From: Planctomycetota bacterium
Lineage (GTDB): Bacteria > Planctomycetota > UBA1135 > GCA-002748355
DNA: 63,060 nt
Reading direction: 5' to 3'
NCBI GenBank assembly: GCA_024278315.1
Contig: JAJRTL010000076.1
Span: forward strand, 1 to 63,060
Shown here: piece by piece, positions 2,553-61,785 of the stretch
Layout of the letters: every line of letters begins with the position of its first letter
How positions within the stretch are numbered: position 1 is the first letter of the stretch
Made by a program: the position numbers and the translations under genes
Notes under the pieces: generated by a model
Databases searched by the model: none
What the model saw: the letters and a program-made list of their open reading frames with translations, nothing else
What the model was told of the DNA's origin: nothing

Positions 2553-4460
2553 CTAGTGGATCCGCAGACCCTCGAAACGGATGGGTCGCATGGGGGCTCC
2601 GGCAGGTAATTGGAACCCCATACGGCCTTGGAGTCGACGACGTTCCAGGGGAATGATACGAGGTGCGAAGGGTCCGACACGAAGGGAGAGATCGTGATCC
2701 CGGAGGAGGAGAGTCACAGGGATAGAACTCTTGCCGTAGCTCGAGGGCATCTTGGCATACATCTCGAAGATGACGATAGGGCTCCCGTCTTTCCGCTGCT
2801 CCAGGATGACCACGATGTACCCTTTCATCGGTTTGAAGCGGAGGACGAATCGGTCTTTTCCGGAGCGTTGACCAAAAACGAAGTCGAGGATCGCAGGTCG
2901 AGGATCGATGGAAAACTCTACCAGACATCCGGCTGCGGGCATGGAGGGAAGGAGAAGGAGGGAGGACCCCTTGTTCCGGACAAAAGGACTCACGAGTGTA
3001 CCCTTCTGATAGTTCCAGGCACCCAGCCCTCCCAGGGTCTGTGCCCTGGCGAACAGGTTCTTGACTGAGGGGAAGAGCTGATCGATCTTCTTCTTGTCTT
3101 CGACGATCGCATCCGCATCCACCACCTTCGGACTCTTTACCGGAGCAACAGATCGACACATCGTGCGATACCTGGCCGCGAGGATCATGCGCCCATCTTT
3201 CTCTTCGGCGTGAGCCAAGGCCGCCAGACGTTTTGCCGCACTCTTTCGCGCGGAGAGAGTTGCCCCCAGAAGTCGATCGACCTTCTTGAGACTCGCCATC
3301 TGCCTCTTGCGGATATCTTCTTCGTTCGACGACAAGGAAGCAAGGATACCTACGCGCTCGAGATAGGCCTTGGCCAGCCAGTCGATCCTCCAAGCTGCCG
3401 CGCGCTCGGAAGACGCGAAGAGCACGTCGATTTCATGCCCTTGGAGCTTTCGCGGAAGCTCCGCCATGATCGACTTCCCGGCCAGCAGCGGCCGAATCCT
3501 GAAGTTGCGGAAGGACGTGGCCAGCTTGCTCGAGGTGAAGAACACATGCTCGAAGCAGAGGTGCCCATCCATCGTCGCGTTGGCAACAGGCAGGACACGA
3601 AGAGGTCCGTCGCCGATCGCGATGCTGAGCTCGGAGGATCGAACCTCGATGTGGAGGGGGAGCCAGGCGTCGACGTCCACATCCTCCCAAAAGCTGCCCT
3701 GCGGTGAGTAGCTGACCCTCGGTGGTGGGTTGTAGCGAAAGCCACCCATGTCGAGTCTCTTTTCACCGGGCCAACGACGCATTTCCGCCAACACATAGAC
3801 CTGTTTGCTATCCCCCGACCCCAGAAAGATGCCTGCCTTGGATTCCGCCGCGGGCAGACGCATCTCGCAGTCGATCATGAGTCCGGGCATGCTGGCCAAC
3901 CTGCTCTCGAGGATGGCCGGAGACTTCGATGTCGCATTGGGCCCGGGTGATACGAGCATGCCCTTGTGCCATCGGAAGGCGTTGCCTCCTTCTCGCTGAT
4001 AGCTATCGTTGGCCAGCGCCCCCCGCACGATTTTCTCGAAAGGCAAGCGGCCTTCACCGGCGTCGAAGAGGCAGGTCACCAGCGCACGAGTTCCGTCGAC
4101 TGACCTCTCGATACCTTCCGCCATCAGTAGCAGCTCGAGGGCATCGGCCCAGTGCTTCTGACGCATGTGGCTGATGCCTACCTTGCGGAGACTCCGTGCC
4201 GCACCGCTCAAGAGTTTGCGTTGCTTCTTCTCCTTGGGAGAAAACTTGGAGAGCAGGGCCTGGATCTGGGCCTGCGCCTCTTTGTCCTTGCGGAGCAGAG
4301 CTTCGTCGTATGCCGCACGAAGCAAATAGACAACGCGGTCCAACTGGTTGGCCTTCTCGGCCACAGTGGCAGCGGCGCGCAGCTCCTGAACCCTATCCCC
4401 TTGCAGGGGAGGGGCTGCTGGACAGGACAGGATGGCCAAGGCCAATGGGTGCAAGAACAT
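2553..4460 (-). CDS. secreted hypothetical protein with two internally repeated beta-rich modules (DUF1080/concanavalin-like by eye)
   Basis: 635-aa ORF with a hydrophobic N-terminus (MFLHPLALAILSCPAAPP). Two similar modules each begin with a G(M/T)LVSP segment. No recognisable catalytic motif. Confidence 0.6.
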   Translation of the reverse strand: MFLHPLALAILSCPAAPPLQGDRVQELRAAATVAEKANQLDRVVYLLRAAYDEALLRKDKEAQAQIQALLSKFSPKEKKQRKLLSGAARSLRKVGISHMRQKHWADALELLLMAEGIERSVDGTRALVTCLFDAGEGRLPFEKIVRGALANDSYQREGGNAFRWHKGMLVSPGPNATSKSPAILESRLASMPGLMIDCEMRLPAAESKAGIFLGSGDSKQVYVLAEMRRWPGEKRLDMGGFRYNPPPRVSYSPQGSFWEDVDVDAWLPLHIEVRSSELSIAIGDGPLRVLPVANATMDGHLCFEHVFFTSSKLATSFRNFRIRPLLAGKSIMAELPRKLQGHEIDVLFASSERAAAWRIDWLAKAYLERVGILASLSSNEEDIRKRQMASLKKVDRLLGATLSARKSAAKRLAALAHAEEKDGRMILAARYRTMCRSVAPVKSPKVVDADAIVEDKKKIDQLFPSVKNLFARAQTLGGLGAWNYQKGTLVSPFVRNKGSSLLLLPSMPAAGCLVEFSIDPRPAILDFVFGQRSGKDRFVLRFKPMKGYIVVILEQRKDGSPIVIFEMYAKMPSSYGKSSIPVTLLLRDHDLSLRVGPFAPRIIPLERRRLQGRMGFQLPAGAPMRPIRFEGLRIH

Positions 4461-4509: not shown

Positions 4510-4586
4510 CCCGAGTACATGGGGTCAGACCCTATTTCTCCGGGTGAAACACCCGGAGAAATAGGGTCTGACCCCATGTACTCGGG
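4510..4586. repeat. 37-bp perfect inverted repeat with a 3-nt spacer, intergenic
   Basis: CCCGAGTACATGGGGTCAGACCCTATTTCTCCGGGTG-aaa-CACCCGGAGAAATAGGGTCTGACCCCATGTACTCGGG. It lies between the stop of the 4606-6726 gene and the start of the 2553-4460 gene, both on the minus strand. Confidence 0.95.
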
Positions 4587-4605: not shown

Positions 4606-6726
4606 TTAGAGGGGGATGGCGCCTCCGTAGGGGACGCCGGTGAGGTAGGCGACGTCGCGCTTCCAGGTGGTCAGGTCGTCGAGGTGCAAACCGCTGAGGC
4701 TTGTGTGGCCGCAGGCACGGGCCAGCGCACTCATAAGGTGAGCGGTGGCGTCGAAGAAGCGTTGGAGGCCCTGGGCGGCGCTTTCGACGTCGATGAGTTG
4801 GCGCAGGGCTTCGTCCTGCGTGGCGATGCCGGTGGGACAGGTGTTGTTGTTGCACTGGCGCGCACCGATGCAGCCGATGGCCTGGATGGCCGAGTTGGAG
4901 ACTGCGATACCGTCTGCGCCGAGGGCGAGGGCCTTGGCGAAGTCCGCGGGTGTGCGCAGGCCACCGGTGATGAAGAGCGTCACTCCCTTGGCACCTGCCT
5001 GGTCGAGGTGGCGGCGCGCCCGTGCCAGAGCTGGCAGCGTGGGCACCGAGATGTTGTCTCGGAAGATCAGCGGAGCCGCGCCCGTGCCCCCACCGCGGCC
5101 ATCCAGGATGATGTAGTCGCCCCCCAGCTCGAGCGCCGCATCGATGTCCTTCTCGATGTGCTGCGCGGAGAGCTTGACGCCGACCGGGATACCGCCGGTC
5201 TTCTCCCGCACCTCGGCGGCAAAGTCACGAAACTGCGAGACCTGCGTCCACTCGGGAAAGCGCGCCGGCGAGATCGCATCCTGGCCGGCCTCGAGCCCGC
5301 GCACCCTGGCGATCTTCTCCGTAACCTTGGCACCCGGAAGATGACCGCCTGTGCCCGTCTTGGCTCCCTGCCCGAACTTGAAGTGGAAGGCCTGCACCTT
5401 CTGGATCTGTTCCCAAGCAAAGCCGAAGCGCGCCGACGCCATCTCATAGAAGTATCGACTGTTGGCCTCCTGCTCCTCGGGCAGCATCCCACCCTCTCCC
5501 GAGCAGATCCCGGTCCCAGCCAGCTCGGCTCCCTTGGACAGGGCCGTCTTGGCCTCGAAGGACAGCGCGCCGAAACTCATGTCCGAGACGATGATGGGAA
5601 TCTCGAGCTCGAGCGGCTTCTGTGCGCCTGGGCCGACGACCAGCCGCGTGTCGACCGCGACGTCATCGAGCTCGGGCACCTTGTAGAGCTGCGCGGTCAC
5701 GAACTGCAGGTCGTCCCAGACGGGCAACTCGTAGTAGGGCACCCCCATGGATCCCATCTTGCCGTGGCCACCCACCTGGGTCAGACCGTACTTGGCGAGG
5801 TGACGGATGTAGTCGTTGTGGGGTTCTTCACGGTTGACCGGTCCGGCATCCTCTGCGCCCGCTCCGTCCGCGGCAGTGCCTGCGCCTGTGGCCTTCCCGC
5901 GAAGCTCCGTGCGCGACACCATGACCTCGTCCCATGGAGCCTCGACCTCCACGCCGAGCACACGCCCATCGGCAGCCTTGACTACAGGCTTGCCTGCCTC
6001 GAGTGTCGCCGTTACCGAAACGCCCAGGACCTCTACAGCGAGCGGGCTCTTCTTCTCGAGCTCACCCAGCGTGGCCACACGAATCTTGTCATCATCGCGG
6101 TACTTGGCATGCCAGTGCTTCCCATCGCAGAAGGGCTTGTTCTTGCTGCTGCCGCAGCGGCACAGCGCGTAGTGCTCGCGGGAGACCTGGTCGAACCAGG
6201 GCGCCGCCCCGAAAGACACCGATCCCTTGACGCGGAAGGGCCCATGCCTCTCGATCTCGATCTCGGGTGCGCTGTCCAGATCCCGATGCTCCACGCCTTC
6301 GATCGTGTAGCTCAAGGCACCCGAGGGACAGACCTCACAGATCTCGATGATCTCTTCCACCGAGGCATTGTCGGGATGGATCCATGGCTGTTGATTGTGG
6401 TTGAACACGCTCGCTAGCTTCTCGGTGCAATCGCCAGCATGTGAGCAGATGCCACGGTTGTCGTGGATCGTGATCTGCTCGCCCACATAGGTCTTGCGAT
6501 CGTCGCGTTCGACACCACCGTCGTTCTTGCTCGTGAATCCGACCGAGGCATGCGTGCCATCACAGAAGGGTCGCTTCTTGCTTTGGCCGCAGCGGCACAG
6601 CGCCATCACGGCTTCACTGGCAATGGCCTCGCCATCGAAACCCTTGAACTCGGTGAGGTTCTTGACGATGAGCGGGCCATTCTCGGGTGCCGCGATCTGC
6701 GGATCTCTCTCGGACTTCTGGGACAT
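4606..6726 (-). CDS. fusion protein: two CDGSH iron-sulfur domains, a Cys-rich ferredoxin-like segment and a glutamate-synthase-type FMN domain (GltB domain 2 family)
   Basis: CRCGQSKKRPFCDGTH and CRCGSSKNKPFCDGKH match the CDGSH signature. The C-terminal ~430 aa carry GltS FMN-domain segments (SDMSFGALS, GEGG, FGQGAKTGTGGHLPG, DGRGGGTGAAP). Start set at MSQKSERD (ATG 6726), which has an AGGA-containing upstream sequence. Confidence 0.85.
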   Translation of the reverse strand: MSQKSERDPQIAAPENGPLIVKNLTEFKGFDGEAIASEAVMALCRCGQSKKRPFCDGTHASVGFTSKNDGGVERDDRKTYVGEQITIHDNRGICSHAGDCTEKLASVFNHNQQPWIHPDNASVEEIIEICEVCPSGALSYTIEGVEHRDLDSAPEIEIERHGPFRVKGSVSFGAAPWFDQVSREHYALCRCGSSKNKPFCDGKHWHAKYRDDDKIRVATLGELEKKSPLAVEVLGVSVTATLEAGKPVVKAADGRVLGVEVEAPWDEVMVSRTELRGKATGAGTAADGAGAEDAGPVNREEPHNDYIRHLAKYGLTQVGGHGKMGSMGVPYYELPVWDDLQFVTAQLYKVPELDDVAVDTRLVVGPGAQKPLELEIPIIVSDMSFGALSFEAKTALSKGAELAGTGICSGEGGMLPEEQEANSRYFYEMASARFGFAWEQIQKVQAFHFKFGQGAKTGTGGHLPGAKVTEKIARVRGLEAGQDAISPARFPEWTQVSQFRDFAAEVREKTGGIPVGVKLSAQHIEKDIDAALELGGDYIILDGRGGGTGAAPLIFRDNISVPTLPALARARRHLDQAGAKGVTLFITGGLRTPADFAKALALGADGIAVSNSAIQAIGCIGARQCNNNTCPTGIATQDEALRQLIDVESAAQGLQRFFDATAHLMSALARACGHTSLSGLHLDDLTTWKRDVAYLTGVPYGGAIPL

Positions 6727-6764
6727 GAGTAGGTTCCTTGGGGAGACGATCGAAGAAGACGCTG

Positions 6765-6795
6765 GCACATGTGTGGGGCTGGCAACGCACATGTG
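6765..6795. promoter_or_regulatory. two copies of the palindrome-containing motif GCACATGTG, 22 bp apart, in a divergent promoter region
   Basis: GCACATGTG occurs at 6765-6773 and 6787-6795 (core CACATGTG is self-complementary). The sites lie between the divergent starts at 6726 (minus) and 7051 (plus). Confidence 0.3.
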
Positions 6796-7050
6796 AACAC
6801 GGCCACTCCGGCCCATCCAACCGATTCTGATCCAACAGGGATGGAGGACACCCGAGCCATGGCTCTGCTCATACTTCTACAGCGCCGTTGGGTGCCAGAT
6901 CCTCTCGCTGTCCGGGATTTTCAACAAATCTGGCTGCCGTCCTCTTCGCCCTGGCCTCCGGAGGCAGGGCCCCATGAATCGCTCGGAGCGATTTCCGTAG
7001 GATTCCTGAAAACCCTGTCGGGTGGGGGAACGCCCTGTCGGGAGGGGGGC

Positions 7051-14687: not shown

Positions 14688-16337
14688 ATGACACTGAGCA
14701 CTCGACTTTTCTCTCTCTCCGGCACAGCGCTCCTGCTCTGCTGCTCTCTGGGCCTCTCGTCGCCCCAACTCCCTGCACAGCAAGGGGGTTACTCGCTCTT
14801 CGGCGCTGGCTGCGGCCCCACAACGGCCATCAGCGGCTCGACCAACAACATGACCTGCGCCAGCCCGGCCGGCGCGAGGGCCAACGGCAAGAACTACTAC
14901 GCCATCTCCTGTAGAGAGAAGGTCACCAAGACCCTCTCCAGCGTGACCTTCCGGATGCAGGGGACCCGACCCACGTCGATGCTTCTGGAGCTCTGGCTGG
15001 CGGACAAGACGGGTCGGCCCTCCAAGCGTCTGCGCACCGGACCCATGGTCGTCGGCCGCAACTACGGGAGCTACACGGGCCGATTCTCACCCTACAAGAT
15101 GGCAGCTGGCCAGAACTACGCGATCGTGATCTTCGGGGCCCGGGACATCGTGCTGCCCCAGTGCAAGACCGGCAACCTCGTCGCTGGCTACACCAGGGTC
15201 GTGCCCGGGACCTGGAAGGTCTCCGTCGCTCGCTGGGCCTACCGGGTGAACGCGGGCAGCGTGACCACAGTCCCTACGCTCCGCAACAGCGCGGTGCCCC
15301 TCATCGGTCGTACGATGTCGATCCAGCTCGCCAATGCCCGGCCCAACACGATCTCCTGGCTCAACTTCGGCGATTCCGCCACACGATGGGGACCCTTGTC
15401 GCTGCCACTGCACCTCTCTGCTTTCCAGGCATCGGGCTGATATCTGCGGACATCGCAGCTCTTCAGCGTGGTGCTTCCCACGAACTCCCTCGGTCGGTCT
15501 TCTCTCTCCATCCGCGTGCCCAACCACACCTCCCTCATAGGCAAGCGCTTCTACAACCAAGGCATGATCTATGACAAGGCAGCCAACAGCTTGGGATTCT
15601 CCTTCACCAATGCAGGCTCGGGCCTGGTCGGCAAGCCCTGCGGCAACAGTGCCTCCCGGACCGCCGGGGGCACACTGCGCTTTGCACTGCCACGCGTCAA
15701 CTTCTTCGGCTTCCCAGGACTCAGCATCGCTGGAAACTACACCGGGACCAAGAGGAAGATCTGCTGCACGTCCAACGGCCCACAGGCCTGCTACTACTCC
15801 GGCCGCGGCACGATCACAGGCCAGGTCGGACAGTTTTCGATTCCCGTCACCGCGCTCGGTAAGGTCGTCGACGACATCAATGCCAAGGTATGCACCTTGC
15901 TCAAGGCATCTTCGTCAGGCACGATCACCTGCAGCTCCCTGATGGGCATCAGTGTCAACGGCATCAAGGTCAACGCCGGCGTCAATCTTCTGCGCAACGA
16001 CTGCAATCGGACCAACAGCTACTCGTCCCGCGGATCCATCCAGTTTCCAGGCGGCGTCTTCGGTGGCGTCGACACGACAGCATCGGTCAAGCTTCCCATT
16101 ATCGGCAAGTTCGGATGGAAGTTCAAACTCGGCGTCACGGCGACGCCCGCGGGCTCCTGGGTCGTCTCCGCCAACCGCGCGTGGATGACCATCAAGATCA
16201 CCAGCGTGAGCGTCACAGGCACGACGACGATCCCCGTCCTCAACAAGAAGGTCAACTTCAACTTCAAGATCAACACTCCGAGCCTGACCTTCACGACTCC
16301 CGCCGTCAGAATGCCGACCATCACGATCGGCTGCTAA
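14688..16337 (+). pseudogene. secreted paralog-family protein A, interrupted by one in-frame TGA (15438-15440)
   Basis: ORFs 14688-15440 and 15468-16337 share a frame and are separated only by the TGA. The junction aligns without gaps to the intact paralog 50176-51309. N-terminal signal peptide MTLSTRLFSLSGTALLLCCSLGLSSPQLPAQQ. Confidence 0.7.
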
Positions 16338-16397
16338 CCCGAACGATTCATGACCTCGATGCGTCTGACGGCGTCTTTCGGTCCAGGACCGCGAACC
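16338..16397 (-). mobile_element. solo right-type terminus (60 bp) of the foldback element family
   Basis: CCCGAACGATTCATGACCTCGATGCGTCTGACGGCGTCTTTCGGTCCAGGACCGCGAACC equals the reverse complement of the right 60 bp of the full copies except one base. It starts at the base after the TAA stop (16335-16337). Confidence 0.75.
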
Positions 16398-16441
16398 ATG
16401 ACGGTATCGCGGTTACCACACCGGGAGTAGGTGGATCGTTC

Positions 16442-25457: not shown

Positions 25458-27194
25458 CTACTTGCCGTTGCGTTCCGCGGTGCGGAGCACCAACTCCTGG
25501 ACCTCCCGAAGCGTTTCCTCACGAGTGAACCCGTCCTTCTTCTCGTCGCCGAAGTAGTCCAGACAACCCACGCGATGTCTCAGCTTGTAGAACTTGCGCA
25601 TGTCCTGGAAGCCAGCTTCGCCAGCCCCCTCGAAAGACTCCGTTGCATCGAAGGGGTAGGGACCATTGTAGGCACCGCCTCGGTTCACGCTGGCCAGGAG
25701 CCGCTCCCTCTCGTGGAAGGCCTGGGCCACATCCATCGTGTCATGTCGCCAATCGAGCTGGATTCCGTGCAGGTTCCACTTTTCACGCTCCTTGTCGACA
25801 GGAACCAGTGGGATCACGGTATGCACCCAACAGTTGAACCAGTGCATCGTCGACCCGCGGTCGGGATAGGCGTTCAACATCGCGATCGTACGGTCAATCG
25901 ACTCGGGCGTCTCGGTGGGGAAGCCAACTACCAGTGTGCTGAGGGTCGATATGCCCACGTCCGAAAGCAGGTTCATCGTACGCAGGACGCGCTCCGGCCT
26001 CTGGACCTTGCGCATGGTCTTGAGCACTCCCAGGTCTCCGGATTCGATTCCGAGCATCAGGAAGGTGCAACCCGCTTCCTTCATCAGCTGGGCATTCTGC
26101 TCGTCGACCGAATCCACCCTCACGAACGCCGACCAGGTGAAGGGGAACTTCTCCTCAACCATCATCTTGGTGTACTGGTAAACGCTGCGCCTGGTGAGGA
26201 AGAGATTGTCGTCCACGAACGAGACGTGCTTGATGATGTCCGATCGTGTCGACAGCTCGCGTAGCTCCTCACGGAACACATCGACCTTCTTCATCTCGAA
26301 CTCGGGGTGGATCACGACGAAGGAGCAGAACTTGCACCTCAACGGACATCCTCGACTGCCTCGTACACCGACCTCCCGTCCGAGGAACTCATCCGGAAGT
26401 TGGCTCCATACGACGCCCTCTTCGTTCACATCGACGAACTCGGGCACACGCGGATTGATGTGCCAATCCCGGTTCTCGTCGGCATAGGCAAGATTGGGCA
26501 GGTCCTTCCAGGGCCGGCCATCCCTGACCCTTCGGACGATCTCCGCAAGCGTCGCCTCGCCACGTGAATCGATGACCAGAGCATCGACCGCTGGATCAGC
26601 CTTCTCTCCACTGAACCAGTAGGTGGCCTGGATCAGGAGATGCGGATGCAAGCGGGGCGCATCGGTCATGATCTTGTGTGAGTAGAGCACAAGAGGGCCA
26701 CCAATCACGATGGGCACGTCGGGAACGATCTCGCGGATCCTCCTTGCGGTGGACTCGGCGGCCTCACGGCTCTCCAGGAACGTCGTCGAGATGGCAATGA
26801 CCCTGGGCCCCTCTTCGACATAGTCGAGAAAGGTCTGCCAGGAGGTGGCCAGGTTGTTGATGAGCCGCGCGGTCATCCCCTCCTTGATGAGATGACTCGT
26901 CACGTAGAGACCGTTGCCGAAGCGGGTCAGTGTGTCATTGCTGAGTTCACTGAAATACTTCTCGACCTCTGCCGGCGACAGCGAGAAATTCCGGTCGTTG
27001 CGAAACCAGTTCTCGGCCGCAACGTACGACATGGGCACATCCCCCTCTTTCCACCAGGGCGCGTCAGCGAACAGCAGCTGTCGGATCTGCTTGTCGGACA
27101 TCCCATAGGAGGATGAGAGGAAAGAGAACTTGTCTCGATCAAAGTTGCCAGCGGATTGCGAATCCGAAGAAATGAAGAGGACATCGAAGGACAT
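25458..27194 (-). CDS. B12-binding-domain radical SAM protein (class B type)
   Basis: 578-aa ORF with CPLRCKFCSF (CxxxCxxC) and an upstream Rossmann-like B12-binding segment (VIAISTTFL ... PIVIGGP). About 110 aa of unassigned N-terminal sequence. Confidence 0.85.
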   Translation of the reverse strand: MSFDVLFISSDSQSAGNFDRDKFSFLSSSYGMSDKQIRQLLFADAPWWKEGDVPMSYVAAENWFRNDRNFSLSPAEVEKYFSELSNDTLTRFGNGLYVTSHLIKEGMTARLINNLATSWQTFLDYVEEGPRVIAISTTFLESREAAESTARRIREIVPDVPIVIGGPLVLYSHKIMTDAPRLHPHLLIQATYWFSGEKADPAVDALVIDSRGEATLAEIVRRVRDGRPWKDLPNLAYADENRDWHINPRVPEFVDVNEEGVVWSQLPDEFLGREVGVRGSRGCPLRCKFCSFVVIHPEFEMKKVDVFREELRELSTRSDIIKHVSFVDDNLFLTRRSVYQYTKMMVEEKFPFTWSAFVRVDSVDEQNAQLMKEAGCTFLMLGIESGDLGVLKTMRKVQRPERVLRTMNLLSDVGISTLSTLVVGFPTETPESIDRTIAMLNAYPDRGSTMHWFNCWVHTVIPLVPVDKEREKWNLHGIQLDWRHDTMDVAQAFHERERLLASVNRGGAYNGPYPFDATESFEGAGEAGFQDMRKFYKLRHRVGCLDYFGDEKKDGFTREETLREVQELVLRTAERNGK

Positions 27195-27242
27195 GAAGTT
27201 CTCAGTGGGCAGGAGTGGAAGGTCGACCTGTAGACAAGCTAA

Positions 27243-27462
27243 CCCGGACTATTCATGAGATCGTTGTGAGCAAATGCGAGATCGGCTGCGCCGATCTCGC
27301 ATTTGCGGTCTGACGAGCGCATTTCGAGTTCAGGACGGCTGCGCGAGATATGAGGCGACCCAAGAGGGTCGTCGAATCGAAGCCATGCCGAGCGAACCCA
27401 TAGGTTCGCGGTCCTGGACCGAAAGACGCCATCAGACGCATCGAGGTCATGAATCGTTCGGG
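27243..27462 (+). mobile_element. foldback MITE-like element, full copy 1 (220 bp)
   Basis: Left end CCCGGACTATTCATGAGATCGTTG; right end reverse complement CCCGAACGATTCATGACCTCGATG. Flanked by CTAA on both sides (27239-27242 and 27463-27466). Perfect internal 17-bp hairpin at 27270-27306. Confidence 0.85.
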
Positions 27463-27746
27463 CTAATGAGTATGCCAGAGATCGACCCGCTGTTGACAGC
27501 TCTCAGAATGAGGCGACGGGCACGTATCTCTAGTTGGGTTTCTATCGACCGGGTGGGAGCCCACCTGTGGGCCGATCACCGGGCCGGAGCCAACAGATTC
27601 CCCAACTGCACACCTATAACCTGTTTTAGACACACATGTTACGGTAACTCAAGCCGAGGTCGTGCGCCAAATGGTCACCACCGGGAACTGCGAGACACAC
27701 CCTGCGTTCAGGCCGGCTGACCCGAGAGGACAAGCGTAGATCCACC

Positions 27747-28253
27747 ATGAAGACGACCCGAAATCTCCTTTGCATCACGATCGCTCTCAGCGTCTGGAGC
27801 TGCAGTCCCACGGGGACTTCGCGGGACAATGGCGCCCAGCCCATGCAAGGTCAAGGTGTGGCGCCCATCCCTGACGGCCCGATCCCACAGGAGGACGTGG
27901 TGCTGACCTTGGAGGGATCCGTGGTGCAGGATCCAACCGCCAGGGAGTGGGAGCAGATCCAAGTACGGTTGTCCAACCGCTCAGGACGAGCCCTCGGATT
28001 CACAGGCTACGACGAGACCCAACCTTGGTATCGCATCCAGCGCTTCATCGACTCCAAGTGGGTCGACCACCAGGTCGGCTGGTACTGCGGAACCGGGCTT
28101 CGTCAATGCAAGATTCCATCGGGTATGTCTTCGATCATCCCCGTGTCCGTGCGCAAGGATCTCTACCCCATCCGTGTCGGTGTCACCTACTCACTCGGTG
28201 CGGGCAAGGCCGAAAGCCAAACCGTCTGGAGCGCACGCATCGACGCACGCTGA
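27747..28253 (+). CDS. hypothetical lipoprotein
   Basis: MKTTRNLLCITIALSVWSC signal/lipobox; 168 aa; no recognisable domain. Confidence 0.6.
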   Translation: MKTTRNLLCITIALSVWSCSPTGTSRDNGAQPMQGQGVAPIPDGPIPQEDVVLTLEGSVVQDPTAREWEQIQVRLSNRSGRALGFTGYDETQPWYRIQRFIDSKWVDHQVGWYCGTGLRQCKIPSGMSSIIPVSVRKDLYPIRVGVTYSLGAGKAESQTVWSARIDAR

Positions 28254-29028: not shown

Positions 29029-29312
29029 GAACCCGACCGTCGACGCCAATCGCTCCCATGCGGTCACCGACGCAATGCTGGATGCATGATCTTGCATTCC
29101 ACAGTCGTCGTCACGGTGGCAATCTCCTCGATGCCATCGTGACGACGCATGTACAGCGCCCTCCTTCTGGATAGGGGTCACCTTCCGACTGTGCAGGGCG
29201 AGCAACCGGGCTATGATAGGCGCCAAGAATCGTGATGCTCGCGACTGTCCCCTGGCGGTCACGGACGACGCAACACGCCTCGCTACTCCTCCCCTCGCAT
29301 GGAGCCTCTCAG

Positions 29313-30476
29313 ATGTTCAAGGTCTACCTCCTCTCTACGCTCGCAGTCACTGCATCACTGGGCCTCTCCCAGGCCAGCACGACACTCCCCAAAGGGTTCG
29401 ACAAGACCCAGGGCACGTCCTATTTCTGGAGTGGATTCAGCGTCGCACCAACAACAAATCTCGACTACAAGTACTACACTTCGAGAAGCGTCTTCCTCTA
29501 CGACTCCTCGACATTCCCTTGGAATCCGAAGAGTGCCAAGGTCATCGACAAGATCAGCTTCCGGCGGTCGCATTCGAATCCCGCTGCGACAGCTGCGGCC
29601 CACAAGGCCAAGTGGGTCGTCATCATATCGACGAGCAACCAACCGGCTCATCGTCCGAACACGAAGTTCGATGACAACCATGGCAGCAACAAGAAAGTCG
29701 TGTTCGGAGCCAAGGGCCCCCAGGAGGTGAAGTTCCTGGCCACGCCACAACCCAAGGCCTTCACGACGGCACCTTTCGATGTGACGGTGGATATCACCAA
29801 CTTCCTGGTGCTTCCCAACACCAAGACCCTCGTCATCGAAATCCGCAGCTACAGCAGTGACGTTCGTTTCGGTGACTGGTATGTGGATTCGGCCATCTAC
29901 CCGGGCACCGGCTACAACGGTGGTGGCTACACGCTGTTCTACTCGACGCACTGTCTCGCCCCTCGGGCTTTCTACTCGGCCCGTGCCAGCTATCTCAATG
30001 GCCACCTCGCTCACATCTGGAGGACCGGTCGGAAAGGCGGCTTGCCGGTCATCGGCCTGGCAGGGACTCGAATGACGACAGGTATCAAGGTGCCCAACAC
30101 GACCTGCGAGTGGTACATCAACCCGATGATCACAGCGGTCACCCTGACAGCCAATGGTCCCGGGCACGCCACGAATCCTGGTCAAGGCACTGCATACCTG
30201 GACTGGGGCCCCATCCCACCTATCGCCTCCCTGGTCGGAATCAAGGTGGCTCACCAGGCTCTCATCATCGACCCCAGCGCCAACAAGCTAGGCATCGGCA
30301 TCACCCGTGGCGGTGAGACATCGATTGGAACCGCGTACGACAACAAGTACGTCAACGTGGGGGCCACCTACTCCTTCGGCCCACAGAACCACCGCTACAA
30401 CAAGTTCATGGACGCTGACAAGGAAACCTACGGACGCTACTTCTACCGTCGGGTCCCCATCATCAACATCCAGTAG
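29313..30476 (+). CDS. secreted paralog-family protein B
   Basis: Start at MFKVYLLSTLAVTASLGLSQAS (ATG 29313). It shares the family layout: an N-terminal LPKGF..T.G segment, a conserved Cys pair (STHCLAP ... NTTCEWY) and a C-terminal Q.LIIDPSANKLGI..T.GG module. Confidence 0.75.
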   Translation: MFKVYLLSTLAVTASLGLSQASTTLPKGFDKTQGTSYFWSGFSVAPTTNLDYKYYTSRSVFLYDSSTFPWNPKSAKVIDKISFRRSHSNPAATAAAHKAKWVVIISTSNQPAHRPNTKFDDNHGSNKKVVFGAKGPQEVKFLATPQPKAFTTAPFDVTVDITNFLVLPNTKTLVIEIRSYSSDVRFGDWYVDSAIYPGTGYNGGGYTLFYSTHCLAPRAFYSARASYLNGHLAHIWRTGRKGGLPVIGLAGTRMTTGIKVPNTTCEWYINPMITAVTLTANGPGHATNPGQGTAYLDWGPIPPIASLVGIKVAHQALIIDPSANKLGIGITRGGETSIGTAYDNKYVNVGATYSFGPQNHRYNKFMDADKETYGRYFYRRVPIINIQ

Positions 30477-30562
30477 CTGTCCGCGGGCAGGGAGTGGGGA
30501 CAGCAGTGAGGGGGGAGGTTGACCGGGGTTTCGAAGGTACCCTTGTAAGAAAGGTAGGTTAG

Positions 30563-30782
30563 CCCGGACTATTCATGAGATCGTTGTGAGCAAAATCGAG
30601 ATCGGCGCAGCCGAGCTCGATTTTGCGGTCTGACGAGCGCATTTCGAGTTCAGGGCGGCTGCGCGAGATATGAGGCGACCCAAGAGGGTCGTCGAATCGA
30701 AGCCATGCCGAGCGAACCGATAGGTTCGCGGTCCTGGACCGAAAGACGCCATCAGACGCATCGAGGTCATGAATCGTTCGGG
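30563..30782 (+). mobile_element. foldback MITE-like element, full copy 2 (220 bp)
   Basis: Same termini as copy 1. Flanks TTAG (left) and TTGG (right). The internal hairpin at 30590-30626 carries two compensatory base-pair swaps relative to copies 1 and 3. Confidence 0.85.
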
Positions 30783-30841
30783 TTGGGAGATCCTCGCGAA
30801 GCCACGGGACTTCTGGAAAACATCGATGGCAGTCTGATGTA

Positions 30842-30905: not shown

Positions 30906-31760
30906 ATGTCCAGACACCTACACCCTGTCGTCGTTGCCCTGATCGGTGTTGCCGCATTCTGCGTTGCCTGCAGGAACACCGCCTCTACCGATGGTCCACC
31001 AGAGGTCAAACCCTTGCGCGTCCTGAGCTACAACATCCATCACGGCGCTGGCGTCGACCGAAAGCTCGACCTCGAGCGTATCGCTGGAATCCTGAAGCGC
31101 AGCGGGGCCGACCTCATCGCCCTGCAGGAAGTCGACCGCGTTGTCCAGCGCACCGGCAAGGTGGACCAGCTACAGGAACTCGCGAGGCTCACCGGGATGC
31201 ATCCCGCCTTCGCCAGGTTCATGGACTATGGGGGTGGCAAGTATGGCCTCGCCATCCTCAGCCGGTATCCCATCGACCACTCCTGGCCGATCCTGTTGCC
31301 GCCCGGCAAGGCCGAGCCGCGCAGCGCGTTGGCCATCCGCGTCGAGCACCCCGGGTTCGGGCCAGTCACCTTCGTCTGCCTGCACTTCGACTGGATCGAC
31401 GACGACACACAACGCTACGCGCAAGCGCAGGCGCTCCTGGCTGCACTGGGGGATGTGGCCGGAACGGTGATCCTCGCGGGCGACTTCAACGACCGGCCTG
31501 GCTCGCGCACTCTACGACTGATTCTGGGACAGTTCACTCATGCGGCCAAGCCCGAGGATGCGAACGGGACCTTTCCCGCACCCAAGCCCGACCGCGAGAT
31601 TGATTTCGTGATGTTCCGACCGACCGACCAGATCGAAGGCCTTTCCCACGTCCTCGACGAAGGCGTTGCTTCCGACCACCGGCCGGTGCTGGCCGAGCTG
31701 CGCTACATCAGCCCACCCTCACCACCTGTCACACCTTCTTCACCTGGCCACCAGCCATGA
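30906..31760 (+). CDS. endonuclease/exonuclease/phosphatase (EEP) family protein, secreted
   Basis: LRVLSYNIHHG, IALQEVD, GDFND and SDHRPVLAEL motifs of the EEP fold, with an N-terminal signal-like segment. Confidence 0.85.
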   Translation: MSRHLHPVVVALIGVAAFCVACRNTASTDGPPEVKPLRVLSYNIHHGAGVDRKLDLERIAGILKRSGADLIALQEVDRVVQRTGKVDQLQELARLTGMHPAFARFMDYGGGKYGLAILSRYPIDHSWPILLPPGKAEPRSALAIRVEHPGFGPVTFVCLHFDWIDDDTQRYAQAQALLAALGDVAGTVILAGDFNDRPGSRTLRLILGQFTHAAKPEDANGTFPAPKPDREIDFVMFRPTDQIEGLSHVLDEGVASDHRPVLAELRYISPPSPPVTPSSPGHQP

Positions 31761-31795
31761 GCAGCCCAACCTGCCTGGCACTTCTGCAGCCTTAT

Positions 31796-31826
31796 CCCGG
31801 ATGATTCATGAGATCGTTGTGAGCAA
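31796..31826 (+). mobile_element. solo left-type terminus (31 bp) of the foldback element family
   Basis: CCCGGATGATTCATGAGATCGTTGTGAGCAA matches the left end of the full copies and then diverges. Left flank is TTAT. Confidence 0.7.
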
Positions 31827-32115
31827 CTACGCGTCAGGCTATAGGGGGAGGAGCTTTCGACGGCAATCTGTGGAAGATCATCCACTGACTACCGGAGACT
31901 GGATAGAGAAGTCGGCTTTTGTGGGCGGCTGGGCTGGGGGGGCTTGCTAAATTCGGCCCCGTGGTTCGTGGATCTTGGCTACAGGGAGCGAGCGGACTAC
32001 AAGACTGGATGCGGCAGGTGAGGCGATTGCCACAAGCCGCTACTGAGCAAGCTCTTGGATTATTCGATTGGGTCAAGAGACTGGCCCATTCACCACTCAC
32101 AGGATCAGGCATTCG

Positions 32116-39162: not shown

Positions 39163-40881
39163 TCAAGAACCCTCACCGGCACATGGGCGAAAGCGCAGCT
39201 TGCGTTCACTTTTTTCGAACATGTGGGACTTCCCGGTTGCACATCCGCCCAGTTTCCCGCGAAGCCGGACCTCCATCCCGCGACGAAAGACCAGCAACTC
39301 GATCGTATCACCTGGAAAACGCTCTTCCTTGAGCCTTGCCTCGAAGCTCTCCGGTAGGACCCGTTCGCCGTCCAGGGCCACGATCTCATCCTCTGCCGAG
39401 AGGCCCATCCGGTCTCCAGCGCCATCCCGGTCGATACTCGCCACGATGATGCGCTCCCCCTTGGACGAGTGGCGAATATCGAGGCTCGCGGTTTCGGGTC
39501 CAGACGGACCTTCATAGCTGAGACCAAAGGGAGCGAGCAGGGCTTGAAGGTCGGGATCCCCACGACCGTCGACCAGGTCCGTAAACTCGGCACTCAGGTC
39601 CGCACCAGCGGCTTCATTGGCAAGACTGAGGACCAATTCTCGGCTCTGGCCCGGGCCGTGTTCGAGGTAGTCGGCGTAGAGACCTCGCATGACCGTATCA
39701 AGGCTCTTCTGTCCCGCCGAACGTTCCTGGATAAGTAGATCCAGACAGAGGGCCAGGACTGCCCCCTTTCCGTAGTAGCTCACGGTGCTGTTGCGGGTGT
39801 TCTCGTCAGGTCGGTAGAGCTTGATCCACGCATCGTGGCTGGACTCCGACAGGCTCATGAGTTTTCGTCCGGGCACAGCCAACACCTGGGCGTAGTTCTC
39901 GGCGAGTCGATCCAGGAAGAACTCGCGACCGAAGATCCCAGCCATGTAGGGAATCACCTCCTGGTAGTAGGTCGTGAATCCCTCGGCCAACCAGAGATCG
40001 GGCGTGTAGTTCTCGTTTTCGTAGTCGAAACTCGCAAGCCCCTCGGGGCGGATGCGCTTGACGTTCCAGGAGTGGAAGTGTTCGTGGGCCAGGAGATCCA
40101 ACAATCGCATGCGTTCCTTGGGTCTTCGGAAGGAAGACCTGCGCATGTGGATGACCGTGCTGTTGGCATGTTCCAAGCCACCACTGGCAGTCTCATCCGC
40201 AAAGATCTGGAAGACGTAGTTCTCGTAGGGGAGTTCGTTTCCGAAGATGCCCGCGGCAGCCGTAACGATCTTCTGGAGGTCCGCATTGAGCCTGCTCCTC
40301 TCCTCTGCGTCGACACCATCCAGCATCACGACATGGGGAACTCCAAACACATCGAAACCTGTACTTGGGATATCGCCGACGACGAAGGGGCAATCCATGA
40401 GCTCGTCCAGGTCGCGTGCCCCCCACGCCTCACCTTCTTGGCTAAGGCCCGTGAAAACCTCCCAGGTATCCGGGGATTCGACCACAACAAGAGCGGGCGC
40501 GGCCTTGCAGTTCTCATGGACAATGTAGGTAGCCGCGCCATTCCAGTAGGCACGCTTCTCGTCCACGAAGTTCGTCCGAACGGTCAGGTCGCGCGCATAC
40601 ACGCAGTAGGAGAGCGTGACGCAACCAGACTCAGGCAATCGGAGAGACCAGCGATTCTTGGACGTCTTCGTGATCTTCAGGGGTTTCCCCTCTCCGTCGC
40701 GAGCCTCGAGTCCCTGCACGTGTCGCGCATACTCCCGGACCATGTAGGAACCCGGTGTCCAGACAGGCATGAAGAAGTTGTGCTCTCCTGCAGGCAAATC
40801 CTCGGTCATGCATTCCAGATGCAGGAGATGGTCTTCAGGTCTGGGAAAAGAGACGTGGATGCGCGTCGTCGGCTGGGACAT
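39163..40881 (-). CDS. M61 family glycyl aminopeptidase with a C-terminal PDZ domain
   Basis: HEHFHSWNVKRIRP (HExxH) and a C-terminal PDZ-like segment (GLSAEDEIVALDGERV). Start at MSQPTTRIHVSFP (ATG 40881) within ORF 39163-41142. Confidence 0.85.
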   Translation of the reverse strand: MSQPTTRIHVSFPRPEDHLLHLECMTEDLPAGEHNFFMPVWTPGSYMVREYARHVQGLEARDGEGKPLKITKTSKNRWSLRLPESGCVTLSYCVYARDLTVRTNFVDEKRAYWNGAATYIVHENCKAAPALVVVESPDTWEVFTGLSQEGEAWGARDLDELMDCPFVVGDIPSTGFDVFGVPHVVMLDGVDAEERSRLNADLQKIVTAAAGIFGNELPYENYVFQIFADETASGGLEHANSTVIHMRRSSFRRPKERMRLLDLLAHEHFHSWNVKRIRPEGLASFDYENENYTPDLWLAEGFTTYYQEVIPYMAGIFGREFFLDRLAENYAQVLAVPGRKLMSLSESSHDAWIKLYRPDENTRNSTVSYYGKGAVLALCLDLLIQERSAGQKSLDTVMRGLYADYLEHGPGQSRELVLSLANEAAGADLSAEFTDLVDGRGDPDLQALLAPFGLSYEGPSGPETASLDIRHSSKGERIIVASIDRDGAGDRMGLSAEDEIVALDGERVLPESFEARLKEERFPGDTIELLVFRRGMEVRLRGKLGGCATGKSHMFEKSERKLRFRPCAGEGS

Positions 40882-40911
40882 GGTGCTCGTTCTGTGTCGT
40901 GGTTGACGTAA

Positions 40912-40957
40912 CCCGAACGATTCAGGACCTCGTTGCGTCTGACGGGAATCATCCGGG
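40912..40957 (-). mobile_element. 46-bp mini copy of the foldback element (two termini only)
   Basis: CCCGAACGATTCAGGACCTCGTTGCGTCTGACGGGAATCATCCGGG, flanked by GTAA on both sides (40908-40911 and 40958-40961). Confidence 0.65.
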
Positions 40958-46796: not shown

Positions 46797-48353
46797 ATGA
46801 AAGCCACAATCTCTATCTTGGCTGCGGGCCTTTGCCTCACTGCAGCAGTCTCTGCACAAACGAACTACTCGGTTGTGACCTCTTCGAGATTCGATGCGAC
46901 CTCCTTGGATGACAAGGGGGGCGAACTCTCGAAGATCCGTCCCTTCGGACTTTGGCAGTTCACTCCATCCAAAACAGGAACCGCTGCGTACCACGTGCTC
47001 AGCTCCAGCAACCTGTCAGCCCTCATGGGGGATCCCGATGGAGACGGAAAGCTTGCTGTCTTCAACGGCATGAAGGATGCGGGCACCTTTGCCATCAGCC
47101 CGTTCATCAAGGACAAGGACCGGAAGAAGAACGATCCGCGGCTCCTTTTCTGGACCGTGAAAGACTACGGAAAGCTCAACACGACGATCCATGTCTTCCG
47201 TAATGGCAAGAAGCACGTCGTTCGCCCTGGTGACTTCGTCCGGATCAATGCCAATGGCAATGCTGAGTTCTTCATCACACAAGACCTGATCATGAAGGGT
47301 GTGGGTGCCCAGAAGGGAGCCTTCATCAAGGGCGTCACAGCACTTTGTCAGAGCTCGACAGGAGCCCTGTTCTTTGCACCTGGACATGGGCGCAATGCTG
47401 CCAACACGGGCAGCGGTGGCGGCTTTTGGATCGGAAGCACCTTCATCTACGACGGAGGTGTCTGCACCATCCCGGCTTCCGCCATCAAGTACGACAACGC
47501 GGGCAATGTCGTGGACGTCAAGGGGTCCAGCGCCACGTTGCTCTTCAACGAGATCGGCAGTGGGCCTCTGTCCCAACTCAGCGCCAGGGACATGATCAAG
47601 AACTCCAACTTCAGGAGAACGGACGGACTCAACCAGAATACATCACTCTGGATGACCGGGGTCGAGATCGACCCCAACGGTGGCACCTTCAAGGATTGGG
47701 GTGGCAATGTGCAACCCAACCTGATCTTCACCTTTGAAAACTACAGGATCCAACTCGGGACGGCTTGGTTCCCCAGCTGGGCCGGCACGATCTTCTCGAC
47801 CCGGCCCACGAAGGGAGTCACAGCCATGGGAAGCCTGGCCGTCATCAATGGCGTGGAGATGGGCGTCACCACCAGCAAGGCGACGGGAGCCTGGACCGGC
47901 CTCAAGAACAGTCCCAAGCCTCCATGCCTGCGGGGCCTTGCGCTGCTGCAAGCCAACCACAAGCCCCTAGCTCCCAGCGGCCCCATCGGATCCACGACCA
48001 TCAATGATGGCGTCGTCACAATGGGTGTGGACCCCAGCATCGTCCTGGCCTTCCAGGACTCCAATCGCGTCGCTCCCGGGCTTCTCATGCTGGCCGCATC
48101 CGCCGGCAAGGGGCAGCGCTCGATCGGCCTGGATCTGGGAGTCATCCTGAGCGGCTACGCCGATGTGCATGTGCTGAGATTCGGCCCCAGCATCAATGTG
48201 GCCGGCGTCAGCGACATCAAGGGCCGTCTCACGGTCACCATACCGACACCCACGAACACGGCACTCAAGGGAGTCACGCTCAACTGGCAGATGCTCTTCG
48301 TGCGCGGCACGACCCTCAATATGACTCCCCCGGTCCTCACCGAGATCCGTTAG
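46797..48353 (+). CDS. secreted paralog-family protein C (divergent N-terminal domain, shared C-terminal module)
   Basis: Signal peptide MKATISILAAGLCLTAAVSAQ. The C-terminal RLTVTIPTPTNTALKGVTLNWQMLFV module is shared with the other family members. The TAG stop is followed at the next base by an element terminus. Confidence 0.75.
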   Translation: MKATISILAAGLCLTAAVSAQTNYSVVTSSRFDATSLDDKGGELSKIRPFGLWQFTPSKTGTAAYHVLSSSNLSALMGDPDGDGKLAVFNGMKDAGTFAISPFIKDKDRKKNDPRLLFWTVKDYGKLNTTIHVFRNGKKHVVRPGDFVRINANGNAEFFITQDLIMKGVGAQKGAFIKGVTALCQSSTGALFFAPGHGRNAANTGSGGGFWIGSTFIYDGGVCTIPASAIKYDNAGNVVDVKGSSATLLFNEIGSGPLSQLSARDMIKNSNFRRTDGLNQNTSLWMTGVEIDPNGGTFKDWGGNVQPNLIFTFENYRIQLGTAWFPSWAGTIFSTRPTKGVTAMGSLAVINGVEMGVTTSKATGAWTGLKNSPKPPCLRGLALLQANHKPLAPSGPIGSTTINDGVVTMGVDPSIVLAFQDSNRVAPGLLMLAASAGKGQRSIGLDLGVILSGYADVHVLRFGPSINVAGVSDIKGRLTVTIPTPTNTALKGVTLNWQMLFVRGTTLNMTPPVLTEIR

Positions 48354-48388
48354 CCCGAACGATTCATGACCTCGATGCGCCTGACGCC
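48354..48388 (-). mobile_element. solo right-type terminus (about 35 bp) of the foldback element family
   Basis: CCCGAACGATTCATGACCTCGATGCGCCTGACGCC starts at the base after TAG 48351-48353. Left flank is TTAG. Confidence 0.7.
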
Positions 48389-48398
48389 ATCGAGCTTC

Positions 48399-48443
48399 AT
48401 GAAGAAACCCCCATCGGGACAGTCCCGGTGGGGGTTTCTTCAT
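48399..48443. terminator. 15-bp perfect hairpin between convergent paralog genes
   Basis: ATGAAGAAACCCCCA-(15 nt)-TGGGGGTTTCTTCAT. No U-tract. Lies between the 3-prime ends of 46797-48353 (plus) and 48986-50092 (minus). Confidence 0.5.
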
Positions 48444-48548
48444 AGCCTGAAAGAGAGAAGGATGGGAGAAGCTGTGGTGCCCCACACTCATCGCTCACCC
48501 CATCCCACGCTCATTGGCCTCATGGCTCACCGGGCTCATGCAGCATAA

Positions 48549-48767
48549 CCCGGATGATTCATGACCTCGTTGTGAGCAAATGCGAGATCGGCTGCGCCGA
48601 TCTCGCATTTGCGGTCTGACGAGCGCATTTCGAGTTCAGGACGGCTGCGCGAGATATGAGGCGACCCAAGAGGTCGTCGAATCGAAGCCATGCCGAGCGA
48701 ACCGATAGGTTCGCGGTCCTGGACCAAAAGACGCCGTCAGACGCATCGAGGTCATGAATCGTTCGGG
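48549..48767 (+). mobile_element. foldback MITE-like element, full copy 3 (219 bp)
   Basis: Termini CCCGGATGATTCATGACCTCGTTG and reverse complement CCCGAACGATTCATGACCTCGATG. Flanks ATAA / ATAG. One base shorter than copies 1 and 2 (CAAGAGGTCG versus CAAGAGGGTCG). Confidence 0.85.
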
Positions 48768-48775
48768 ATAGGAAG

Positions 48776-48868
48776 GTGCTGAACTCACTGCCCAGGACAT
48801 CTTGCGATGTCATCCACGCGCGTGCTGGCATGATCGAACCATCGTGAACTCACTTCTCTCTCACGGAG
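48776..48868 (+). repeat. second interspersed repeat (about 93 bp), copy X
   Basis: GTGCTGAACTCACTGCCCAGGACATCTTGCGATGTCATCCACGCGCGTGCTGGCATGATCGAACCATCGTGAACTCACTTCTCTCTCACGGAG matches the reverse complement of 62919-63009 with few mismatches. Confidence 0.75.
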
Positions 48869-48985
48869 CCACAGAGAAGACACGGAGTGCATCAAGCAGC
48901 CCCGCCATTCAAGGCGACCTTTGAGGCCGCCTCCGTGCCCCCTGTGAGAGAGGAGGAGTCCATCGAACGACAGGGCCCTCCAGGA

Positions 48986-50092
48986 TCACTTCTTCGTGAT
49001 CTGGGTCACGAGACCAACACCGCGATCGACGTGCCCAACAGAGGAGTTGGAGCTGTTGGACAACCTGTAGACCAGGGTGGAATCGAGACCAGTCTGGCCG
49101 AGGTTTCTACCCATCCGGATCTGCACCCCATTGGAAAGTGCGATTGGGAAGGCAGGATTGACGCGCTTGTCCAAGGCCAACCATTGGAAGTACATCGTCT
49201 TGTTCACCAAGGACTTCAAACCAGGAAGTAGCAAGTCCAACTGGGCCGAGCCTTGGCTGCGTGTCTGAGCCGTAAAGGTCATGTCGTAGCTGGCGTAGAG
49301 CGAGCATCATGTCAACCCGAGTCCAGAGAGACTCAGCGGGAGCTTGATCCCACTCCACGTGCTGTTGCTTGCCCCCAGGATGCCGACAACGGGGCTGAGA
49401 GAAGGACCCTCATAGAGCAGCAAGGAGAGAGGGGTTGAGCTTCCGGGATTGGTGGCGATCGCGTAGGCGCGATTCTTGCCCAAGGGACAGGCGGTACCAA
49501 ACGCCTTGGCATCGCCATGATCGATCTGGCTCCTCACGGCATCCACCCAGTAGCCATGGATGCGATACCGGGATTCGTAGACGTAATGATCGATCGCCAG
49601 GTTGGGGCCCGTGAAGGCAAAGGGGAAATCGAGGGGAAACTTGATGTCGAACCCAGGCAAGCCCGAGGCAGGATTCTTGAGAACCGGGAAGTTGACTCGC
49701 TTGGCGAGGAACACGGTCCGCAGCGTGTTCAGCTTCCCGGTTCCAGGCTTGAGAAACCTCTCCATCTTGGTCGACGTCGTGGGCCAGAAGTTTCCCATGC
49801 GCACGGTCCAGATGGGAGTTGTGGACCGCCTCAAGCTGAGTGTCGGGAAGGCCTTCCCGTCTCTCCGGTAGGCGATGGCTGTGATGGAGCTGTTGAAGGT
49901 CAGCTTGCCGGCCAACAGGACAGAGCCGATGTACTGGGTCATGCGGCAACGGTCGTAGCCGAAGGGTCGCAGCTCCAGGGTGTTGCCCTCCTTCGTTGTA
50001 TTCGCTGAAGGAATGACGAAGGAACTGCTCGTCTGGGAAGGAAGGGATGCGGCGAGGAGGCCAGCCGCTGCAAGAAGGCTCGTGCTGCGCAT
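48986..50092 (-). pseudogene. secreted paralog-family protein D, interrupted by one in-frame TGA (49307-49309)
   Basis: ORFs 49307-50092 and 48986-49282 share a frame. The junction GLGLT*CSLYASYDM aligns to SLGLKGCSLQASMDI of the adjacent intact paralog. Signal peptide MRSTSLLAAAGLLAASLPSQ. Confidence 0.7.
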
Positions 50093-60873: not shown

Positions 60874-60958
60874 CACGGGCACAGAGTCCAAGAAAAGGAG
60901 GGGCGGAAGCCAAGCATCTGGAATCGACTGGATATGGACCGGGATTGTAGGGATGAGA

Positions 60959-61483
60959 TCATTCGGCCATCCGGGCAATAAGGCTCTCGATGCTTGAGGG
61001 AAGCACCTCATCATCACTGATCTTCTCGAAGATCTCGTCGAGAACAGGGCCAGGAGCCACCAGGGTCACGAAGAACTCAGCGTCGAAGAGCTTTCTAAAA
61101 GCCTTGATCTTCTTGATCTGGGTCTCGTTCAAGGTCGGCAGGACCTCGATCACCATGGTCTTGCCCTCCCGCCCACGTCCACGGAGAACCATGGTTGGTG
61201 AGTAGGCAGCCACCTTCTCGTCCTCGAGTTTGACCTCGAAGCGGCGCGGGGCGTGCGAGTGGGCCAGGCCATGCTTGGACAGACACTGGCAGACTCTCTG
61301 CTCCAACTCGCTGAGAAGCGGGCGTCCCCCGCATCGGCCGTAGACCTTGCCCTTCTCAGGTGGAGCAACGAAGTCCTGCTCGAACTCGATGCCGCGCTTG
61401 CTGACGAAGATTCCATCTACAGGGCTCCGGGTCTGGGTCGGTTTGACCTCGGTATCGGAACCTGAACGTTTTCTAGCCGCCAT
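60959..61483 (-). CDS. hypothetical protein
   Basis: 174-aa ORF with basic N-terminus. It resembles PD-(D/E)xK-type layouts only faintly (YSPTMVL...IEVLP), and the catalytic residues are not conserved. Confidence 0.45.
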   Translation of the reverse strand: MAARKRSGSDTEVKPTQTRSPVDGIFVSKRGIEFEQDFVAPPEKGKVYGRCGGRPLLSELEQRVCQCLSKHGLAHSHAPRRFEVKLEDEKVAAYSPTMVLRGRGREGKTMVIEVLPTLNETQIKKIKAFRKLFDAEFFVTLVAPGPVLDEIFEKISDDEVLPSSIESLIARMAE

Positions 61484-61667
61484 ATGTTCTCAACAGCGAT
61501 CCAACAGGAGGATCCCGGAAGGCCAATCGTGTCATCCGATCAACCTAACCACCTAGTGGAAAATCTCTTACAGTGATCCGCTCAGTGGTTTTTCCGGGGA
61601 ATCCACGGAGCAAAAGGCCGAGGATCTTAGCACGCTACATTCCGCTTGTCAGCATTCCTCTGACCTG

Positions 61668-61785
61668 CCTCGAACTATTCATGACCTCGATGAGTCTGAG
61701 GGCGCCTTTCGGTCCAGGTGGGCAAACACGCACTCGGCTGCGCAGATCTCGCGTTTGCCCACAACGATCTCATGAATCACCAGGG
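61668..61785 (-). mobile_element. 118-bp internal-deletion derivative of the foldback element
   Basis: Degenerate right-type terminus (CCTCGAACTATTCATGACCTCGATGAGTCTGA), a hairpin GGGCAAAC...GTTTGCCC, then a left-type terminus in reverse (CACAACGATCTCATGAATCACCAGGG). Lies 67 nt from the tRNA gene. Confidence 0.65.

Follow-up and report, generated by a model that had tools for sequence, protein, structure and literature searches.

The stretch of DNA analysed here, called the window throughout, is a complete NCBI contig of 63,060 nucleotides with a GC content of ~60%. Its host is probably an uncultured planctomycete bacterium; the named homologues of the Exo_endo_phos protein encoded in the window occur in Phycisphaerales/Planctomycetota MAGs at 49–57% identity, and the best match of all reaches only 69%. 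The gene content agrees with this placement, in that TPR-bearing Ser/Thr kinases and Sigma70_ECF (PF07638) are encoded and many open reading frames are without a Pfam match. Two of the reading frames stand out by their domain content. The first (58672–61017, −) codes for 781 amino acids with complete GreA/GreB N- and C-terminal domains at residues 629–779 only, the preceding ~620 residues being without a Pfam match, which leaves an unusual fusion or an over-extended frame. The second (4606–6816, −), with 736 amino acids, combines two CDGSH iron-sulfur zinc fingers and a divergent Fer4_19 4Fe-4S mono-cluster domain with a glutamate-synthase FMN domain.

Dispersed over this contig are nine copies and remnants of a 220-bp non-coding, hairpin-forming mobile element; Table 1 lists them as three full copies (219–220 bp), two copies shortened by internal deletion to 117 and 46 bp, and four solo ends. 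A degenerate 21-nt terminus pattern (CCCGRAYKATTCATGASMTCG, ≤3 mismatches), run over the whole window, gave 13 matches against 0.04 expected from shuffles, and when a profile of the full copies c1–c3 was run over the window with nhmmer, no tenth locus appeared. By self-BLAST, c1 shares 96.0% identity with c3 and 95.5% with c2, c2 and c3 are 92.9% identical, and the sequences around the three full copies are unrelated to one another. The density amounts to about one locus per 7 kb, and the copies together make up ~1 kb, that is, ~12% of the intergenic DNA of the contig. The first-pass annotation had described three full copies with few differences, a 118-bp internal-deletion derivative (61668–61785), a 46-bp copy (40912–40957), and a very high density of termini in 63 kb; the coordinates of the full copies proved exact at 93–96% pairwise identity, all 13 termini were recovered at the positions it had given, and the 46-bp copy stands as described, while the longer derivative was found to span 117 bp.

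Table 1. Copies and remnants of the repeat element in the window; flanks (left/right, or the single flank of a solo end) are in element orientation unless stated otherwise.
Feature	Position	Strand	Length and composition	Flanks	Neighbourhood
Full copy c1	27243–27462	+	220 bp	CTAA (27239–27242)/CTAA (27463–27466)	Divergent radical-SAM gene 25458–27194 (−); ORF 27747–28253 (+)
Full copy c2	30563–30782	+	220 bp	TTAG (30559–30562)/TTGG (30783–30786)	ORF 29232–30476 (+); Exo_endo_phos gene 30906–31760 (+)
Full copy c3	48549–48767	+	219 bp, 1-nt deletion	ATAA (48545–48548)/ATAG (48768–48771)	
Internal-deletion derivative	61669–61785	−	117 bp; left end ~63 nt + right end ~56 nt	CAAA/GCAG, unmatched	Adjoins 3′ end of tRNA-Met (61853–61929, −)
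Mini copy	40912–40957	−	46 bp; right end 34 nt + left end 12 nt	TTAC/TTAC (GTAA/GTAA as read in the window)	
Solo right end	16338–16400	−	63 nt; 97% identity to c1	TTAG	
Solo left end	31796–31829	+	~31–34 nt (profile match to 31840)	TTAT (31792–31795)	Between Exo_endo_phos stop (31760) and conserved block upstream of purF
Solo right end	48354–48391	−	38 nt	CTAA	Followed by terminator-like hairpin, ~48399–48441
Solo left end	63007–63032	−	23–26 nt	CTAG (63033–63036)	Fused to second ~200-bp repeat (62813–63009); 28 nt from contig end

The ends of the element are imperfect inverted repeats of ~26 bp, with CCCGGAYKATTCATGAGATCGTTGTG on the left and, in reverse complement, CCCGAACGATTCATGACCTCGATGCG on the right; 20/26 positions match in c1 and 21/24 in c3, in line with the imperfect ends of ~25 nt noticed early on. 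The whole element folds as a rod with side hairpins, and pairing spans its full length. The RNA minimum free energy of c1 was calculated as −129 kcal/mol for the + strand (z = −10.8) and −116.7 kcal/mol for the − strand (z = −9.8), and such nearly equal strength on both strands is what is expected of a DNA palindrome. Within c1 a perfect hairpin of 37 nt is located at 27270–27306, in which c2 carries two compensatory pair changes relative to c1 and c3, a feature that could hint at structural constraint beyond transposition. The hairpin is not taken as a selected RNA structure, because its pairing is not kept in a further copy of the element, read through by the protein record P0125 on another contig (see below), and templated correction within the quasi-palindrome would explain the changes equally well. 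Stops interrupt all but one of the six frames in c1 and c2, the peptide translated from the + frame of the element has no homologue among 5.8 billion proteins, and the genuine database matches to the − frames turned out to be reading frames called through other copies. The Rfam matches at gathering score in the window were two tRNAs only, with no family for the element, and at E ≤ 1 nothing overlapped a copy within 48300–49100 and 61500–63060. A scan of c1 for sigma-70-like promoter and terminator motifs found none; in c3, the only motif returned was a weak one resembling a terminator, at the right end.

An extremely stable fold, the two compensatory changes in the 37-nt hairpin, and a strictly intergenic placement, often just past genes, might be taken to indicate a structured element maintained by the host, that is, either a set of structured non-coding RNA genes or palindromes of the REP/BIME kind whose spread depends on a RAYT-type enzyme or on recombination. 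Against this stand the lack of any Rfam match, even at the permissive threshold, and the balanced folding of the two strands. Furthermore, what survives in the deletion derivatives and solo ends is the termini, the structural core being lost, which is the pattern expected of transposase substrates, not of structured RNA, and the 4-bp flank duplication discussed below is statistically solid. As to the REP version in particular, REPs have a length of 20–40 bp, GTAG/CGTC heads, and no duplication (PMC3733652), and neither a RAYT nor a Y1 transposase was found in the window. Host maintenance of this kind is accordingly regarded as very improbable.

A mark of transposition is found immediately outside the termini. 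A central TA (NTAN) is present in 11/13 flanks (P = 9e-19), TA accounting for 1.5% of the dinucleotides of the window. Among the five two-ended copies, two have perfect flank pairs and two agree in three of four positions; the duplications are imperfect in c2 and c3 and absent in the 117-bp derivative. The variable outer bases are equal on the left and right in 7/8 cases (P = 5e-4), and over all positions compared 14/16 are equal (P = 5e-7). The flanks CTAA, TTAG, CTAA, CTAG, TTAG, and TTAG/TTGG fit the motif YTAR, which holds strictly at 6/9 loci, while ATAA, TTAC, and TTAT, seen at three loci, are one outer base off. TA is the sole invariant part of the flanks, and IS711 is reported to duplicate just the TA of its YTAR target (PMC2266754), so that one might think of a TA-duplicating MITE of the IS630/Tc1-mariner type (Correia, RUP) or of the IS427 group (IS711), the extra flank bases being coincidental; a 2-bp duplication does not predict the agreement of the outer bases, and we give this possibility hardly any credence. 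The match of the outer bases from left to right indicates that the duplication is a true one of 4 bp and not of TA only. A 4-bp duplication at NTAN, mostly YTAR, is thus supported and a TA-only duplication disfavoured, and the 4-bp NTAR duplications of the first-pass annotation hold, each of its flanks having been found again.

All nine loci reside within the 8.0 kb (12.7%) of DNA that is non-coding by the ORF set of this analysis; 85% of the NTAN sites are located within coding sequence, yet no locus is found there. Two of the solo right ends begin directly after a stop codon, the one at 16338 following the TAA (16335–16337) of gene 15468–16337 (+) and the one at 48354 following the TAG (48351–48353) of gene 46797–48353 (+). 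It can be rationalized that, with TA as rare as it is here, the stop codons TAA and TAG would be frequent among the usable targets, and the duplication made by an intact insertion at such a codon would leave the stop intact. The 46-bp copy lies 31 nt ahead of an M61 peptidase gene on the − strand, the probable ATG of which is at 40881. A + strand reading frame, 39835–40911, apparently ends at a TAA beside this copy; it was dismissed as spurious because it runs antisense to the peptidase gene. Right after the solo right end at 48354 follows a long GC-rich hairpin (48399–48441, ATGAAGAAACCCCCATCGGGAC/GTCCCGGTGGGGGTTTCTTCAT) with a U-rich tail, which is probably the terminator of gene 46797–48353. 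The 5′ arm of this hairpin bears a weak likeness to a degenerate left terminus, and the segment 48354–48413 could be a second mini element.

With regard to decay, the 117-bp derivative matches positions 2–64 and 163–218 of the profile and is 86–91% identical to the full copies. Its breakpoint coincides, in the alignment, with a direct repeat TTYGCGGTC of the full element, which occurs as TTTGCGGTC at about position 60 and as TTCGCGGTC at about 163, and is consistent with slippage or recombination between the two direct repeats. The region between this derivative and the solo left end near the contig end (61669–63032, 1.36 kb, with inverted termini) was considered as a composite or autonomous element and rejected: tRNA-Met and an MshEN-domain gene are all that it contains, and the outer flanks, CTGC/CTAG, are unmatched. 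The four solo ends, the two deletion derivatives, and the left end that is fused to a different ~200-bp repeat would also be accommodated if each locus were an independent remnant of a full-length insertion sequence that had lost its transposase gene. Independent deletions would not yield three full copies with the same 220-bp interior and the same breakpoints at 93–96% identity, and a transposase pseudogene fragment was not detected in or beside any copy, which together make such a history highly unlikely.

The repeat just mentioned is a second one of ~200 bp, present at 48776–48974 (+) and 62813–63009 (−), with 90% identity over the first 102 bp and 76% over the rest. It adjoins a MITE terminus both times, being fused to it at 63009 and starting 8 nt after c3 at 48776. 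It is non-coding, not unusually structured (z = −0.6), and without an Rfam match, and could be a chimeric element with a common left terminus. A further palindrome, single-copy in the window, occupies 4510–4586, where 37-bp arms around a 3-nt loop form a perfect 77-bp structure between the stop of the glutamate-synthase-like gene (4606–6816, −) and the start of gene 2553–4460 (−). It begins with CCCGAG and, like the MITE termini, is preceded by CTAG, and no T-run follows.

Beyond the window, further copies were detected on three other NCBI contigs of 11.9 kb, 4.9 kb, and 20.6 kb, recognized through the protein records P0122, P0123, and P0125, respectively, which probably belong to the same MAG as the window. 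A phmmer search of the translated − frame against 1.84 billion representative proteins returned P0122 and P0123 (two more matches, P0121 and P0124, were discarded as low-complexity false positives), and P0125 was the only match in a protein search with the six-frame concatenate; all three records are singletons at NCBI. The frame of P0122 crosses an internal-deletion derivative of a third kind. That of P0123 covers the terminal part of one element, then a 4-nt YTNG spacer and a second element in full, and appears to finish in another left end. P0125 is porin-like; its called start falls inside a copy, such that the annotated N-terminus (MRSSDRKNERGCADLAFAHNDLMNRPG) is translated element sequence. 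Among the flanks readable from these three contigs, 2/4 are not NTAN.

Searches of wider scope gave no further copies. The 21-mer terminus was absent among the matches listed from GTDB representative genomes and was not found in an exact search of IMG/VR, nor was a 26-mer terminus found in an exact search of JGI metagenomes; the stop-free translation, sought as a pseudo-protein in GTDB representatives and JGI metagenomes, was likewise not found, and plasmids searched with the element by blastn yielded nothing. Around orthologues in relatives (loci L001–L005, ~36 kb non-redundant) no copy was present. One of these, L001 from the nearest available relative, offers the syntenic exo-purF spacer, which is without the solo-end terminus and keeps the purF-upstream block; the relative is distant, and the spacer is not counted as a true empty site because the nearest orthologue shares only 69% protein identity. 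The block itself, ~85 nt at 31906–31990 (L001 965–1050; GAGAAGTCGGCTTTTGTGGGCGGCWGGGCTGGGGGG.CTTGCTAAATTC...CCGTGGTYCGTGGA.CTTGGCTA), is near-identical between window and L001, though identity is only 69% for the neighbouring protein; the block does not occur in L003, has no Rfam match at gathering score, and may be a regulatory leader or promoter.

Taken together, the elements are best explained, with a probability of about 0.85, as a non-autonomous MITE family, specific to its lineage, that a DDE transposase mobilises in trans. The non-autonomous foldback, MITE-like nature proposed at the outset is borne out by size, inverted repeats, 4-bp duplication, non-coding character, and dispersed copies, and mobility is read from the anatomy of the element. 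A Pfam scan of ~50 open reading frames returned no transposase domain, as had been claimed for the window, and an autonomous element with the same termini was not found in the window, among the matches listed from GTDB representatives, or in JGI metagenomes, IMG/VR, and plasmids. The 220-bp MITEs would derive from an insertion sequence of which only the parts required for transposition are left. A DDE transposase with its gene at another place in the genome would bind the ~26-bp inverted repeats (CCCGGAYKATTCATGA... and ...TCATGAATCGTTCGGG) and cut NTAN targets, mostly YTAR, with a 4-bp stagger, after which gap repair would duplicate the 4 bp. The family would have been amplified within this lineage, purifying selection presumably clearing insertions in coding sequence. 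Decay of the copies is seen as internal deletion, in one case at a short internal direct repeat, and as solo ends.

The family is new, although the kind of bacterial mobile element is already familiar, so that little is gained conceptually. The host phylum is poorly studied, and nothing specific on MITEs in Planctomycetes came up in a full-text literature search. Density and a very stable foldback are the main features that set the family apart. Being specific to its lineage and present about once per 7 kb, it would serve well as a marker of recent transposon activity. The copies also give rise to annotation errors: no fewer than three NCBI protein records (P0122, P0123, and P0125) were called through elements, with the start of the porin-like gene in P0125 wrongly extended into one. 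The MITE family also explains the short contigs of this MAG, the window ending 28 nt after a terminus.

As for the parent family, the transposase acting in trans would most likely belong to the IS5 group or to IS701. IS5 makes a 4-bp target duplication with the motif YTAR (PMC5009759), and in the IS701 family the duplication is exactly 4 bp long and highly conserved (PMC2266710), a length shared with the elements described here. IS701 is a family widespread across phyla. The first-pass annotation had proposed the IS5 group; the YTAR duplication fits, as does the bias of IS5 insertions towards non-coding DNA, which is also seen here, while the uniqueness of the signature did not stand, because IS701 also makes conserved 4-bp duplications. 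IS5-group parentage is plausible and serves only as a lead. The ends of IS5 start with GGAAGGTGCGAA (GGAAGG), unlike the CCCGG of these elements, three loci depart from YTAR, and no IS5-type DDE transposase was found in the window. Ends starting with CC are found in the IS1380 family, together with 4–5-bp duplications. It is an unlikely, more elaborate variant that the transposase belongs to a lineage not yet linked to MITEs (for example an IS701-like or another enzyme with 4-bp duplications and termini starting with CC), that several hundred copies populate a Phycisphaerae-like genome, and that the post-stop right ends (16338 and 48354) have been retained as 3′-end RNA stabiliser or terminator modules.

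Two further types of derivative were set aside. PATEs, of the IS200/IS605 type, lack the combination of inverted repeats and duplication, and TIMEs, of the Tn3 type, have a 5-bp duplication and GGGG ends; neither corresponds to the elements of this contig. Among known families, the Correia (NEMIS) elements of Neisseria are alike in being high-copy intergenic MITEs with ~26-bp inverted repeats and a TA-centred target. Correia elements measure ~100–155 bp, occur once per several kb, and coexist in full-length and internally deleted forms. They duplicate TA only, in contrast to the 4 bp of the present family, share no sequence similarity with it, and inhabit another host phylum; promoter, IHF-site, and RNase III functions have been described for them, and no sigma-70-like promoter or terminator motif was found in c1. 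REP/BIME sequences likewise are intergenic, palindromic, and of high copy number, but REPs, in the description cited above, are short and RAYT-linked, as opposed to a 220-bp element that has inverted repeats and duplicates 4 bp. Imperfect palindromes of 100–250 bp with inverted repeats, intergenic amplification, and long hairpins are also known as ERIC/IRU and as cyanobacterial MITEs such as Nezha. The planctomycete elements share this architecture, but no sequence similarity was found in any of the collections searched, and duplication length and target may differ.
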